Assembly (NCBI GenBank): GCA_965202625.1
Contig: CBDBBI010000010.1
Location: forward strand, 672,001-736,000
Direction of reading: 5' to 3'
DNA: 64,000 bases
From: a bacterium
GTDB lineage: Bacteria > UBA8248
Shown: piece after piece, positions 1-4,203 of the stretch
How the letters are laid out: each line of letters starts with the position of its first letter
Numbering within the stretch: the stretch's first letter is position 1
Program-made: the position numbers and the translations under genes
Notes under the pieces: generated by a model
The model's database searches: none
The model's input: only the letters and a program-made list of their open reading frames with translations
Told to the model about the DNA's origin: nothing

Positions 1-844
1 TGAGTGTCCCCATGCCGCAAAACACCACATCTGCATCGTCAGTCATATATTCGTCAAGGAATGGATTCGTGTCCGCACCAAAAATTCTATTAAAATCAGC
101 ATGGGCTTCCTTCAACACGGTGTAAGCATTTTTGGCCGCCTCGCTGCTTTGACGTCTCACTTCCATGAGCCAGTCTTCATTCGCCTGAGGCGCGATGGTG
201 ATGGGATTGTCTGGATGAAGGAGCAAGTCGCCCCTATCATAGGGAGGAAGGAATTGATTGACTTCTTCTTGGCCAGGCAACCGTACCGTCGCCTGGCTGT
301 GCGTCAAGAACGCTCCGTCCATCGCAATGGCACATGGCAGATAGACCCTAGGGTCTTCTGCGATGCGATACGCCAATAAACCAAGTTCGACGACTTCTTG
401 TGCCGTGTCCGGAAAATTGATCATCCAGCCCAAATCACGAACGAGCATAGCATCATTGTGCTCGGTGCCAAATGCACCCGGATCATCTAAGGCGCGACAA
501 CCCACCAACGCCACCATGGGCAGACGTAAGCCGGCCGTGACAGCCAGCGGCTCCATAGCATAGAGCCATCCCACGCCGCTCGAGCCTGTGAATACGCGCG
601 CGCCGCAGGCTGATGCGTGTTTTACAATTTCAAACTGGCCATGCTCGCTCTCCGCCGGAATATAATCCGCGTCGAAATCACCCTCCGCGATAAACTTGGA
701 AACATATTGCATCACCGTATCATACGGCCTGATGGGATATGCCGTAATAACATCCACGTCGGCAAGGCGGCAAACATGCGCCATAACCTCACTTCCAGTG
801 AGGAGATGTACCCCCGCACCTTTTTGTTCAGTTGTCGTCGTCAT
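1..844 (-). CDS. 2-oxoacid:ferredoxin oxidoreductase alpha subunit, oxalate-oxidoreductase-like (3' end outside window)
   Basis: Not in ORF track. Hand translation from ATG at 844 (AGGAG RBS): MTTTTEQKGAGVHLLTGSEVMAHVCRLADVDVITAYPIRPY...ESEHGQ...GARVFTGSSGVG...RALDDPGAFGTEHNDA; open to the window edge. Confidence 0.9.
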   Translation of the reverse strand, partial: MTTTTEQKGAGVHLLTGSEVMAHVCRLADVDVITAYPIRPYDTVMQYVSKFIAEGDFDADYIPAESEHGQFEIVKHASACGARVFTGSSGVGWLYAMEPLAVTAGLRLPMVALVGCRALDDPGAFGTEHNDAMLVRDLGWMINFPDTAQEVVELGLLAYRIAEDPRVYLPCAIAMDGAFLTHSQATVRLPGQEEVNQFLPPYDRGDLLLHPDNPITIAPQANEDWLMEVRRQSSEAAKNAYTVLKEAHADFNRIFGADTNPFLDEYMTDDADVVFCGMGTL

Positions 845-857
845 CTGTTCGCTCCTA

Positions 858-2045
858 TTAAAGCTCTTTTAGAGATTTTGTTTTCGCCGTCTCTGAGTTG
901 TGTCCCGTGTCGAGACCCGCCCCCGAGAACGCTTCCGCGAGGCCGGTGATCGGGTGCCGGCCATCTATCTTTCCATTGCTGATTTTCTCGTCCATATATT
1001 TTGTGTATTCGCCTTTGTCCTCGCACCACATTTGGTATTGACTATCCCGTTCTTCAAAAACGACCTCATTCACCATCGTGATGCAATCCTTGACAGGACA
1101 AATGGCTTCGCATACGCCGCAGCCGCAGCAAGCTTCCATGTTGGCGTCGAAGAAGCCATCCGGAGTTACATCGAAACAAGTGTCTGGACATGCAATCCAG
1201 CAAAGGGTGCACTTCGTGCATTTGTCAAAAGACACTATGGGGCGCATGGTTCGGGTCGACCATTTTTTGAAGTAGGGATTACGGCCCGGTTCATAGCCAC
1301 CATTACCGCCCCTGAAACCCTCATGGCCCCCTACCCCGTCAATGACGACGCCTTGGCGCATTTCGTGCCACTTCAAAAGCTCAAACGTGAAGGGAACTTC
1401 GTCGTTGCCTTGGCCCGGTTCTATTTCCACGGGCCGTAAGTCCTCATAGACCTCGCGCGCGGCCTCTACGTGCGTTTCGGAGCCGATGTTCTCGCGAATG
1501 GCCGATTCCAAAGACGCCATGGAGCACATGCTCGGCTCGGCCTTAAGAGCCGCCCCTAAACACCGCGCGTCGGTGCCGTCATCTTTATACACCCAGAGGC
1601 CGGCAAAGCTTGGGTCACTGTTGATGACCGCAAGTTTATAAGGTGCTTCTCTACGATGAATATGTTTGACGAGTTCATCTTCCTTTTTTGTTGACGTAAC
1701 GATAAGCGTGCCGCCGGGTTTTGTCACAGCGTTGATTGGCTGAAGCCCATACCACGCCCAGGATTCCACGCCTTTACAGAGCGTATCGTCTACGCAGATG
1801 GAAATATCTACTTGCTTAGGCTCATATTGCGCTGCCACGGACTCGAGCTCTTCCTCATTATCCGCGATGTACCCAAATTGCTTTGCCGGAATTCCATTTC
1901 GTTCGGGCGAATCGCTGTATCGTCCGAATGAAATTCCTGGTTTACCTTCCTTCACAGCCGCAAGAATTAAGGAGCGAGAAATGTTCACTGCAAGTTTTTT
2001 CTGAAAAATACCTCGGTAGATCACTTCAAATGATATTACGCTCAC
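858..2045 (-). CDS. 2-oxoacid:ferredoxin oxidoreductase fused gamma/delta subunit with 2x[4Fe-4S]
   Basis: N-terminal PorC-like region (YSDSPERNG, PGGTLIV) plus CTKCTLCWIACP and CCGCGVCEAICP; directly upstream of the alpha subunit. Confidence 0.85.
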   Translation of the reverse strand: MSVISFEVIYRGIFQKKLAVNISRSLILAAVKEGKPGISFGRYSDSPERNGIPAKQFGYIADNEEELESVAAQYEPKQVDISICVDDTLCKGVESWAWYGLQPINAVTKPGGTLIVTSTKKEDELVKHIHRREAPYKLAVINSDPSFAGLWVYKDDGTDARCLGAALKAEPSMCSMASLESAIRENIGSETHVEAAREVYEDLRPVEIEPGQGNDEVPFTFELLKWHEMRQGVVIDGVGGHEGFRGGNGGYEPGRNPYFKKWSTRTMRPIVSFDKCTKCTLCWIACPDTCFDVTPDGFFDANMEACCGCGVCEAICPVKDCITMVNEVVFEERDSQYQMWCEDKGEYTKYMDEKISNGKIDGRHPITGLAEAFSGAGLDTGHNSETAKTKSLKEL

Positions 2046-2057
2046 ATTCGATACCCC

Positions 2058-2855
2058 CTACTTGGAAATTGATGAAATGAAACTTTTTGAAGATTTCCAC
2101 GAAATCGAGTTGCCCGTGTTGCGGTTGCGAATTCGTCGCATGTTCTCATTTGGACGCCTTTCGACCTCATTGCCTTCAGCCTCAACGAGGTGGCTAATCA
2201 TTCCGGCACTCGCCCTGTTTCTATCGCTAGTGAGAACGGCTTCCAAAATCTCTTCGTGCGCTTCCCATGAGCGGAAGCGAACGCTTTTATCACGAAGCGA
2301 ACGCTCTCTGATCTCACTTAGCGAATTTAGCAAGGTACTCAACAAATGGTGCAAAAATTTGTTTTTGGCGGCTTGTGCAAGGCCCAAGTGAAATTTGGTG
2401 TCCTCCTCCAAACCAAGGCCCCCACCTTCTATCTCATCACGTTGATGCCGGAGCGTGCTCTTAAGTTTTTCCACTTCCTCATTTGTTATACGCTCAGCGG
2501 CTAAAGTGGTGATTTGAGGCTCCAGAACCATGCGCGCCTCGAAAAGATGGTGGACTCCATCCTCTGTGTCGGATGACATTTTTTCAGAAATCATAGGAAC
2601 CATGGATTCGGGTTGCGCCGTGACGAATGTCCCTTCTCCTTGTCTCGTCTCTACCAGCTTAGCGGATTCCAATGAGCGCGTTGCCTCTCGAACTGAATTC
2701 CGGCCAACGCCAAATTGTTCACACAGCTCCCTCTCGGATGGCAACTTATCGCCGGGCTTGATTTCACCTTCCAGTATCAAGGACGTGAGTTGAGCGACTA
2801 TGGCCTCATAGACGCGAGTTTTTTTTACTATCTGCAACCTCTCGTGAATGACCAA
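2058..2855 (-). CDS. FadR/GntR-family transcriptional regulator
   Basis: KPGDKLPSERELCEQFGVGRNSVREA wHTH plus FCD domain (FEARMVLE, DTKFH, HEEILEA); TTG at 2855 chosen for its GAGG RBS (track start 2903). Confidence 0.93.
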   Translation of the reverse strand: MVIHERLQIVKKTRVYEAIVAQLTSLILEGEIKPGDKLPSERELCEQFGVGRNSVREATRSLESAKLVETRQGEGTFVTAQPESMVPMISEKMSSDTEDGVHHLFEARMVLEPQITTLAAERITNEEVEKLKSTLRHQRDEIEGGGLGLEEDTKFHLGLAQAAKNKFLHHLLSTLLNSLSEIRERSLRDKSVRFRSWEAHEEILEAVLTSDRNRASAGMISHLVEAEGNEVERRPNENMRRIRNRNTGNSISWKSSKSFISSISK

Positions 2856-2922: not shown

Positions 2923-3095
2923 GCTATTTTAGAACAAGTCAACAAGTCTCAAAGGTAGTCAATCTGAAATAGAGGAGTTTTCGATCATTCCTGAATTTTG
3001 TTTGATTACATTCCTGTTGGCTTTGATGCTAGAGTTCTCCTTTCCCGCTTTGCTATGTTTCCCTCTCCGACAAAAAACAAAAAAGATGTGAAGCC

Positions 3096-4203
3096 TTGAG
3101 AAAATGGCAAATTCTCACTTTGCTTACTATCGGGCACGCTTTTGAACATTGGTACTAAGGCGTTTTAGGGCCTATTATCCCTATCTGACAGCAGACTTGG
3201 GTCTTACGTTGAACCAGGTGGGACTACTATTTACTGGCAGAGCCGTGATGAGCGCTTTTAGCAGTGTGGGTACAGGCTACATCATCGATCGTTACGTTGG
3301 ATGTATGGCTTCCGTTGCGTTGTTTTATGGCGGAGCAAGTTTTGCGAATGGATTTCTCACGGTGGCCCCCGTCATATGGTTGAGCGGATTGGCGACGCAC
3401 ACCTGGCATCCACCAGCCATGGGTCTACTGGGAATACGCTTTAAGAACCGAAAAGGCTTTGCGCTAGGCGTGCACGGAACGGGCGCGAACATGGGACAGT
3501 CCCTTGCCCCCATCATCGCAGGTTTCCTGCTCCTGGTGATGAACTGGCGAGGGGTGTTACTATTGAACACTGTTCCCTTGTTCGCCACGGCAATGCTTTT
3601 GTGGATTTGCCTAAAATCCTTTCACCTCAATGGAAATCAAAAGCCTAACGTCTCCGTTCATCCGAGCAATTTCAAGAATGCGCTCCAAGAATGCGCTCAT
3701 CAAAAACCCAGGCATAATTCGTATTTGCTTCTTATAGAGCATAAGGATACTGGCGCATAACGTGACGTTGATTTTTACTTCCGATATTGCTACTGAGGAA
3801 ATATAGGGTAGGGCCAAGCTTCTTGGGCATTGCGATTGGCGTATATTCGGCGGCGTCCATATTTCCAGAAACAATCGTTGGCTATCTCTCTGACAGGATG
3901 TCAAGAAAACTGATTTTGTCTGTGGGAATCGCCGCCGGTGGAATATCGATGCTCATGACTCCTCGTATGGGCACAGGAATTGTATTATACGGTTGCCTTG
4001 CTTGTGTCGGTGTTTTTCTCACCTCTATGCGCTCCGCTATTTTTGCATACGGATGCTCATGGCTTCGAATTCGCTTTTGGGGCGATCGGCATATTGTGTC
4101 TGGGAAGTTTATCTGCTTTTTTATGGTTGCCTGGAATAGAGGGAGAATCAGGTTTTCGACGCCCAGCCGTCAGCCAAGGAGATTCTGCACACCCATTTCT
4201 TAG
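3096..4203 (+). pseudogene. Degraded MFS transporter (Fsr-like)
   Basis: MRKWQILTLLTIGHAFEHWY, TAA at 3156-3158, then GVLGPIIP and a frameshift into YLTADLGL...; fragments with HTWHPPAMG, GFALGVHGTGANMG and GYLSDRMSRK lie in different frames. Confidence 0.8.

Follow-up and report, generated by a model that had tools for sequence, protein, structure and literature searches.

A probable coenzyme A-independent oxalate:ferredoxin oxidoreductase variant with alanine at the Asp116 position of the Moorella enzyme

The closest described relative of the enzyme treated here is the oxalate oxidoreductase of Moorella thermoacetica (MtOOR), a 2-oxoacid:ferredoxin oxidoreductase (OFOR) made of alpha, beta and fused gamma-delta chains. 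The alpha-chain motif YPIRP, with Arg31, is described as a feature of MtOOR (PMC5020499), and coenzyme A (CoA) is not needed by this enzyme (PMC5020499, PMC12337175); domain III has been described as a CoA-binding domain (PMC13768988). Here we analyse a related operon at the left end of a 64,000-nucleotide stretch of DNA (the window; GenBank assembly GCA_965202625.1, contig CBDBBI010000010.1, positions 672,001 to 736,000) from a bacterium of the GTDB lineage UBA8248. Its enzyme has Ala at the position of MtOOR Asp116, and we refer to YPIRP enzymes as Ala-type or Asp-type according to the residue found there. The most likely reading, on sequence comparison, is that this is a CoA-free oxalate:ferredoxin oxidoreductase variant, converting oxalate to two CO2 and belonging to an Ala-type sister clade of MtOOR; another substrate or product seems a good deal less probable. 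Coordinates are those of the window unless prefixed, G000 being the genome under study (99.7% complete) and L001 its own locus with flanks.

The 5' part of the alpha gene (domains I-II; Pfam POR_N and PFOR_II) occupies positions 1-844 of the reverse strand and leaves the window on the left; the whole gene, which starts at position 844, encodes 404 amino acids (G000:C10:671630-672844). The best match of the protein in a phmmer search of the PDB is the MtOOR alpha chain (5c4i_A, E 1.2e-70), and it matches the four-subunit pyruvate:ferredoxin oxidoreductase (PFOR) structure 9BT4 with E 1e-42. The YPIRP motif lies at 725-739 (reverse strand, as are all alpha features), with Arg39 (728-730) equivalent to MtOOR Arg31, and the switch loop RALDDPGAFGTEHND (452-496) aligns without a gap to the MtOOR loop RTLDPPGDFGEEHTD, so that Arg117 (494-496) corresponds to Arg109, and Ala124, encoded by the GCA codon at 473-475, to Asp116. 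The same loop acquires an acid that the first-pass annotation of this DNA overlooked, Asp121 (482-484) standing where MtOOR has Pro113. Another clade-specific acid, Asp42 (YPIRPYD; 719-721), is present in 38 of 40 aligned Ala-type proteins, where all 19 Asp-type ones have Thr (Thr34 in MtOOR). Gln220 (185-187) is the equivalent of MtOOR Gln211, which we take to have a plug-loop role, and is followed by the clade-specific residues W225, E228 and R230.

Upstream of alpha on the same strand lies a fused gamma-delta gene (858-2045; 395 amino acids) with domain III and two 4Fe-4S motifs (C276-C286 and C306/307-C316). Residues 8-331 of its product match the MtOOR delta chain, itself a gamma-delta fusion (5c4i_B, E 4e-21); the protein also has a clade-specific SWAWYG insert and a C-terminal tail of about 60 amino acids. 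Where PFOR-type enzymes have GRGGQG, presumably the CoA site, the gamma part reads YRGIFQ, and it gives no match to the Pfam POR domain at E 1e-4. GRGGQG is found in none of 25 Asp-type gammas and in 7 of the 12 outgroup loci fetched. The beta gene is located just left of the window, also on the reverse strand (L001:14599-15624, equal to G000:C10:670599-671624), and its product again has MtOOR as best match (E 2e-83, and E 5e-59 against 9BT4). Beta Asn167 corresponds to MtOOR Asn143, a residue that we assume to face the substrate, and beta Asp169, in ANTDIQ, to MtOOR Gly145. Cysteines for three 4Fe-4S clusters, those of the proximal cluster included, are present across the chains, as judged by motifs only, and the two ferredoxin motifs are retained in 43-45 of 48 gamma-delta chains. 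A single-sequence AlphaFold model of beta reached a pLDDT of 37 and was discarded.

The NCBIfam oxalate oxidoreductase (OOR) models score best for all three chains (NF045790, NF045791 and NF045792 at 99/230, 374/500 and 336/590 bits against cut-off, NF045791, OOR alpha, being the best alpha model). The PFOR/VOR models NF040682 and NF008819 (328/550 and 280/405 bits) fall below the OOR model, and the PadG and PadI models of phenylglyoxylate dehydrogenase (PadEFGHI) stay under their cut-offs at 268/700 and 149/700 bits. One of two Asp-type betas tested lies above the NCBIfam cut-off. Of the features of OOR, YPIRP with the Arg31 equivalent, the equivalents of Arg109, Gln211 and beta Asn143, three chains and the lack of GRGGQG are all found; the switch-loop Asp116 and scores above the NCBIfam cut-offs are not, and the enzyme is for these two reasons best regarded as a variant beside MtOOR-type OOR and not as a member of it. 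The first-pass annotation, made from the sequence alone, had reported YPIRP, the Ala and the upstream gamma-delta fusion, had assigned the enzyme to an OOR clade, had raised PGAFG as a possible mark of a clade, and had expected the beta gene in the adjacent DNA. All of this holds up, with OOR as the closest structure and best model and the YPIRP enzymes on one branch.

The combination of YPIRP and DDPGAFG occurs in 121/121 proteins (the query and its 120 best homologues) and is therefore no chance match. When GTDB was scanned with a pattern that left position 116 free, the matches listed numbered 115, at no fewer than 113 loci, with 72 Ala, 42 Asp and 1 Asn at that position. The counts of motif loci and of their genomes below (80-81 flanked loci, 49-50 of them Ala-type and 29-30 Asp-type) rest on these listed matches; flanks are at least 10 kb long in 36/50 Ala-type loci, and the carrier genomes are mostly incomplete metagenome-assembled genomes, counted with their relatives and so not independent. 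Among the Ala-type carriers are Acidobacteriota, Rokubacteria/Methylomirabilota, SAR202 and other Chloroflexota, Myxococcota, bins labelled Nitrospinota, and one Bathyarchaeon. In a tree of 60 full-length alphas, from which fragments were excluded, Ala (40) and Asp (19) sequences fall on opposite sides of a branch with support of 98 and 100. In a rooted set of 25 ingroup rows and 9 outgroup PFOR-type alphas, the YPIRP enzymes cluster together (SH-aLRT 99), with Ala plus Asn sequences (97) sister to Asp sequences (99).

Ala-type and Asp-type alphas are 37-42% identical; fixed differences between the types include D42/T, D121/P, A124/D, W225/Q, E228/P and R230/Q in alpha and E51/G and D169/G in beta. 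Among readable betas ANTD is present in 41/42 Ala-type and ANTG in 25/25 Asp-type sequences, so that, on these alignments, three acids (alpha Asp42, alpha Asp121 and beta Asp169) covary with the Ala. The direction of the change at position 116 was also considered, as the active site had been described as rewired from an Asp-containing one. In a set of 150 representatives (50% identity), most YPITP enzymes have Asn (38), Ser (19) or Thr (11) at this position, and YPIRP-type enzymes Ala (17), Asp (9), Asn (1) or Ser (1); on the Ala side, Asn is found in the deepest branch, and among the present-day sequences compared Asp is confined to the Moorella branch. Asp116 may therefore be a peculiarity of that branch, and a rewiring from Asp is not supported. 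Deep YPIRP-like branches carry Asn (DDPGNF) or Ser (DQPGSF) at this position (L047, P0131 and P0271), L047 being archaeal with ANTG in beta. One Asp-type open reading frame of 755 amino acids (L009:1143-3410) appears to be an alpha-beta fusion in the assembly as deposited. A CDC48-like AAA ATPase gene accompanies 18 Asp-type loci (L008, L012, L014 and L039, for instance) and 2 Ala-type ones, and ThiC or other thiamine genes lie near several Asp-type loci.

The first gene of the operon encodes a FadR-subfamily GntR regulator with GntR and FCD domains (2058-2855, reverse strand, the start being uncertain within 2843-2903), and a GntR homologue is found in 62/81 motif loci. A candidate operator, TGGTAGGACAA, at 2912-2922 of the reverse strand (element 2889-2922) matches the consensus and overlaps the -35 box of a predicted sigma-70-like promoter (AGGACA-18-TATAAT, 2918-2889). 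The same 11-mer stands at the corresponding site in 13/20 relatives. The exact palindrome TGGTCNGACCA occurs in 23/49 Ala-type loci, where 0.66 would be expected by composition, 22 of these 23 copies lying 1.1-2.6 kb before alpha; Asp-type loci have it in 3/29 cases. The conservation of this candidate operator and its predicted overlap with the -35 box support a catabolic operon under the control of a repressor. Presumably the general box of the FadR subfamily, the motif does not name the ligand.

What points to oxalate is the company that the operon keeps. Downstream of beta and convergent on the operon is a tctC-tctB-tctA transporter (L001:10460-13588, forward strand), likely the oxalate importer. 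TctC is encoded in 15/81 flanked loci (12 Ala-type and 3 Asp-type), and the TctC of the operon studied here is the best G000 match for every full-length TctC of either type of locus, those of other lineages sharing 38-44% identity with it and less than 31% with its G000 paralogues; this Tct subfamily is common to both types and distinct from the five paralogues. Among 80 metagenome loci of the subfamily, 13 have an Ala-type enzyme, 8 an Asp-type enzyme, 11 a formyl-CoA transferase (Frc) gene and 48 none of these; no locus has two kinds of oxalate system (32/80 have one). The 11 frc loci include 4 with oxalyl-CoA decarboxylase (Oxc) in view, 6 with a PRK05858-like thiamine pyrophosphate (TPP) enzyme in its place and 1 that is cut, and the TctC group of our operon is sister to 8 of the frc-locus TctCs (support 99). 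The conserved TPP enzyme in the oxc slot (L186:4417-6228, L188:5763-7520, L189:6816-8567, L195:5816-7552, L198:1000-2754 and L250:4191-5903), which stands beside frc, a formyltransferase-like gene and Tct, is about 25% identical to Oxc, with PRK05858 as its best model, below cut-off; it is a candidate non-orthologous oxalyl-CoA decarboxylase.

A second type of transporter, an OFA-family MFS protein, is found in 26/81 flanked loci (12 Ala-type and 14 Asp-type); in the 12/49 Ala-type loci 11 copies follow beta directly. Both copies tested from Ala-type loci pass the oxalate/formate antiporter model TIGR04259, and copies from the two types of locus interleave on a tree. Six residues lining the oxalate site of OxlT (PMC10070484), namely Arg272, Lys355, Gln34, Tyr35, Tyr124 and Trp324, are kept in all 12 Ala-locus copies, and 7 of the 12 genomes carrying these have neither the Asp-type motif nor Oxc. 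Neither Oxc nor Frc is found over cut-off in G000, nor Oxc in any of 50 Ala-type genomes. G000 also encodes 12 TPP enzymes of the Oxc superfamily and 6 Ldh_2-family proteins. Oxalate is favoured as the substrate because the transporters are of oxalate type and are shared with Asp-type and frc/oxc loci; the first-pass proposal of a different small anionic substrate is for the same reason the less likely one. A sulfonate, suggested by TauE genes in 2 Ala-type loci, was set aside, since TauE is likewise found behind this Tct in a cluster of glyoxylate genes.

Several observations weigh against an oxalate-oxidizing enzyme. The Asp116 equivalent is missing in 40/40 full-length Ala-type alphas, and this residue is described as important for MtOOR's bait-and-switch mechanism (PMC5020499). 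All three chains score under the NCBIfam OOR cut-offs that 5/5 Asp-type alphas pass. Ala-type and Asp-type enzymes coexist in 8/50 Ala-type and 5/29 Asp-type genomes (2 genomes being shared), sometimes in one operon (L031), which suggests jobs that are not identical. The absence of Oxc is weak evidence, since Oxc is rare in Asp-type genomes too (2/30 searched). As for the transporters, Arg272 and Lys355 are conserved throughout the OFA family, and malonate is also bound weakly by OxlT (PMC10070484), so that their retention is no proof of oxalate, and no oxalate-type transporter is in view at many loci of SAR202 and other Chloroflexota. The TctC alignment used as query came from proteins encoded beside OFOR genes, which makes the Ala-type and Asp-type counts partly circular; the link of TctC to frc/oxc is independent of this construction. 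Moreover, 48/80 TctC loci have none of the three systems (27 of them being shorter than 5 kb), and no oxalate gene lies within 14 kb at two of three annotated plasmid Tct loci. In favour of oxalate, one of the three, from Skermanella, has the same Tct and a GntR gene next to gcl, glxR, pyk and the PPDK gene (glyoxylate carboligase, tartronate-semialdehyde reductase, pyruvate kinase and PPDK). A literature search for this Tct subfamily as an oxalate importer found nothing beyond a genome paper.

If oxalate is the substrate, it would enter by the adjacent Tct transporter, or by OxlT-type MFS proteins in other lineages, and relieve FadR-type repression at the candidate operator that overlaps the -35 box. 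Arg39 and Arg117 would bind the dianion, the TPP ylide would add to it and the first CO2 would leave; two low-potential electrons would then pass through the three clusters to ferredoxin, and carboxy-TPP would free the second CO2 without CoA. Ylide addition, decarboxylation and carboxy-TPP are steps of the OOR chemistry. More tentatively, what Asp116 does would either be dispensable here or fall to beta Asp169, alpha Asp121 or alpha Asp42.

Coexistence and covariation could also mean that the Ala-type enzymes are a second, mechanistically distinct enzyme, with the catalytic acid moved from the alpha switch loop to beta Asp169 or nearby, retained in one operon with Asp116-type OOR for the sake of a different reaction, and acting on a congener such as mesoxalate or oxamate or forming formate; we hold this to be unlikely. 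If true, a distinct and undescribed CoA-free activity would span SAR202, Rokubacteria, Acidobacteriota and Nitrospinota/Tectomicrobia-like lineages. The better surviving form, still rather improbable, keeps the CoA-free chemistry with mesoxalate, oxamate or glyoxylate preferred to oxalate. With mesoxalate, the Ala would make room for the extra carboxyl, and hydration of the resulting oxalyl-TPP would give the OOR intermediate; with oxamate, cyanate or carbamate would be released. The fixed absence of Asp116 and the remodelled plug-loop region fit such a preference, as do the adjacent Ala-type and Asp-type operons of Acidobacteriota (L031 and L049, also L015, L052 and L074), a flavin mononucleotide (FMN)-dependent 2-hydroxyacid dehydrogenase gene that comes immediately behind beta in 5 SAR202-type loci, the GlcG-like, TRAP and aminotransferase genes of L021, a formamidase-family gene after the MFS gene in 2 loci and an AllG-family gene elsewhere in G000. 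However, the transporters are the same as at Asp-type OOR and frc/oxc loci, FMN dehydrogenases flank 2 Asp-type loci as well, and there is no linkage to amidohydrolase, PuuE or AllG genes beyond the family of the genome itself. AllG is found in only 15/50 Ala-type genomes (5/29 Asp-type) and at 0/80 loci. The AllG gene of G000 shows no allantoin cluster around it in the list of open reading frames, and no cyanase was found in this genome. That AllG-family gene converges on a gene for a TPP-dependent enzyme (L172:8418-12605), with deaminase-like and acyl-CoA genes beside them. A different electron acceptor could also explain the coexistence, as the acidobacterial Asp-type delta is a 610-amino-acid fusion with an NAD(P) flavoprotein. 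Upstream of the tandem operons of L031 lie an acyl-CoA ligase and a PanE-like gene.

Very unlikely, in our view, is an enzyme that acts on oxalate and yields formate, with beta Asp169 protonating the carbanion left by decarboxylation in a CoA-free antiport cycle. It would suit the operons that have a homologue of the oxalate/formate antiporter where Oxc is absent, the new acid lying only two residues away from the Asn on the substrate side, and the coexistence with an oxidative Asp-type enzyme, but the retained ferredoxin motifs and proximal-cluster cysteines point to electron transfer, the same antiporter is found at Asp-type loci, and G000 relies on a Tct importer and not on an antiporter. 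Least probable of all is an ordinary CoA-dependent pyruvate or 2-oxoacid:ferredoxin oxidoreductase, as the source name 'pyruvate ferredoxin oxidoreductase' would have it and as the status of the enzyme as the only OFOR found in G000, near-core in its genus (19/22 genomes), might suggest, and we reject it on YPIRP in place of YPITP, the missing GRGGQG and gamma domain match, PFOR scores below the OOR model and far under cut-off, the three E1 dehydrogenases of G000 and the oxalate-type transporters.

The FadR regulator of the first-pass annotation is real, and the substrate-inducible module proposed with it fits the conserved operator; the decayed importer counted as part of that module probably does not belong there. 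This frameshifted MFS pseudogene (3090-4183, forward strand, divergent from the operon) is genuine, falling into 5 pieces in 3 frames against an intact relative of 407 amino acids. It is not OxlT-type, recurs in 2/80 loci, both close relatives, and is probably not part of the module; the importer that is conserved is Tct, encoded downstream of beta. Around the enzymes of the PGAFG clade, GntR, OFA-family MFS and TctC genes recur. The amidohydrolase and PuuE-like genes, on which a link to purine breakdown and oxamate had been based, are conserved only in the genome's own family, where they form part of a syntenic block on the opposite strand, past glnE. Of 80 motif loci, 1 has a match to the amidohydrolase, and this is from a close relative; none has one to PuuE. 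We therefore reject this link as family-level synteny; AllG is only weakly commoner in Ala-type genomes. An FGE-sulfatase-domain gene co-oriented after beta (L001:13603-14496, reverse strand) shows conservation limited to the same family. The region G000:C10:630001-690000 has a G+C content of 49-51%, the contig having 58.5%; a recent horizontal island was rejected as an explanation, as members of the family share the gene order of the block. Neighbour genes were assigned by a Pfam scan of 148/248 representatives from Ala-type loci, the remainder being distal single-locus genes.

If these enzymes do oxidize oxalate, a large clade that databases name 'pyruvate ferredoxin oxidoreductase' would be an unrecognized sink for oxalate in abundant lineages of soil, groundwater and the sea, some of them in aerobically respiring hosts; surveys of oxc and frc and the NCBIfam OOR models would miss it, and its hosts would draw low-potential electrons from oxalate without CoA. 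The Tct subfamily would become a candidate oxalate importer. The clade also raises the question whether oxalate chemistry needs the Asp116 'switch', can do without it or can have it supplied from the beta chain. Our literature search found no characterized Ala-type enzyme; the primary MtOOR papers and their supplements, which lay outside it, may already show Ala-type sequences.

Among known systems, the Oxc/Frc route with OxlT, of the Oxalobacter formigenes type, resembles the present one in having an OxlT-type MFS protein and the same Tct subfamily as neighbours, but consists of unrelated CoA-dependent enzymes that give formate, neither of which was found over cut-off in G000. The PorABDG PFOR/VOR enzymes (PDB 9BT4; NF040682 and NF008819) share the domain set and fold family, but the present enzyme lacks their YPITP and GRGGQG, has gamma and delta fused and scores far under the cut-offs of their models. 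MtOOR (EC 1.2.7.10; PDB 5C4I, 5EXD and 5EXE) is the closest, with the same alpha, beta and gamma-delta chains, three sets of cluster cysteines, no GRGGQG, and equivalents of Arg31 in YPIRP, Arg109, Glu59, Gln211 and beta Asn143 all present here. The enzyme studied here differs from it in the replacement of Asp116 by Ala, of Pro113 and Thr34 by Asp and of beta Gly145 by Asp, in the remodelled stretch after Gln211, in the SWAWYG insert and C-terminal tail of gamma-delta, and in a host that has a haem-copper oxidase.

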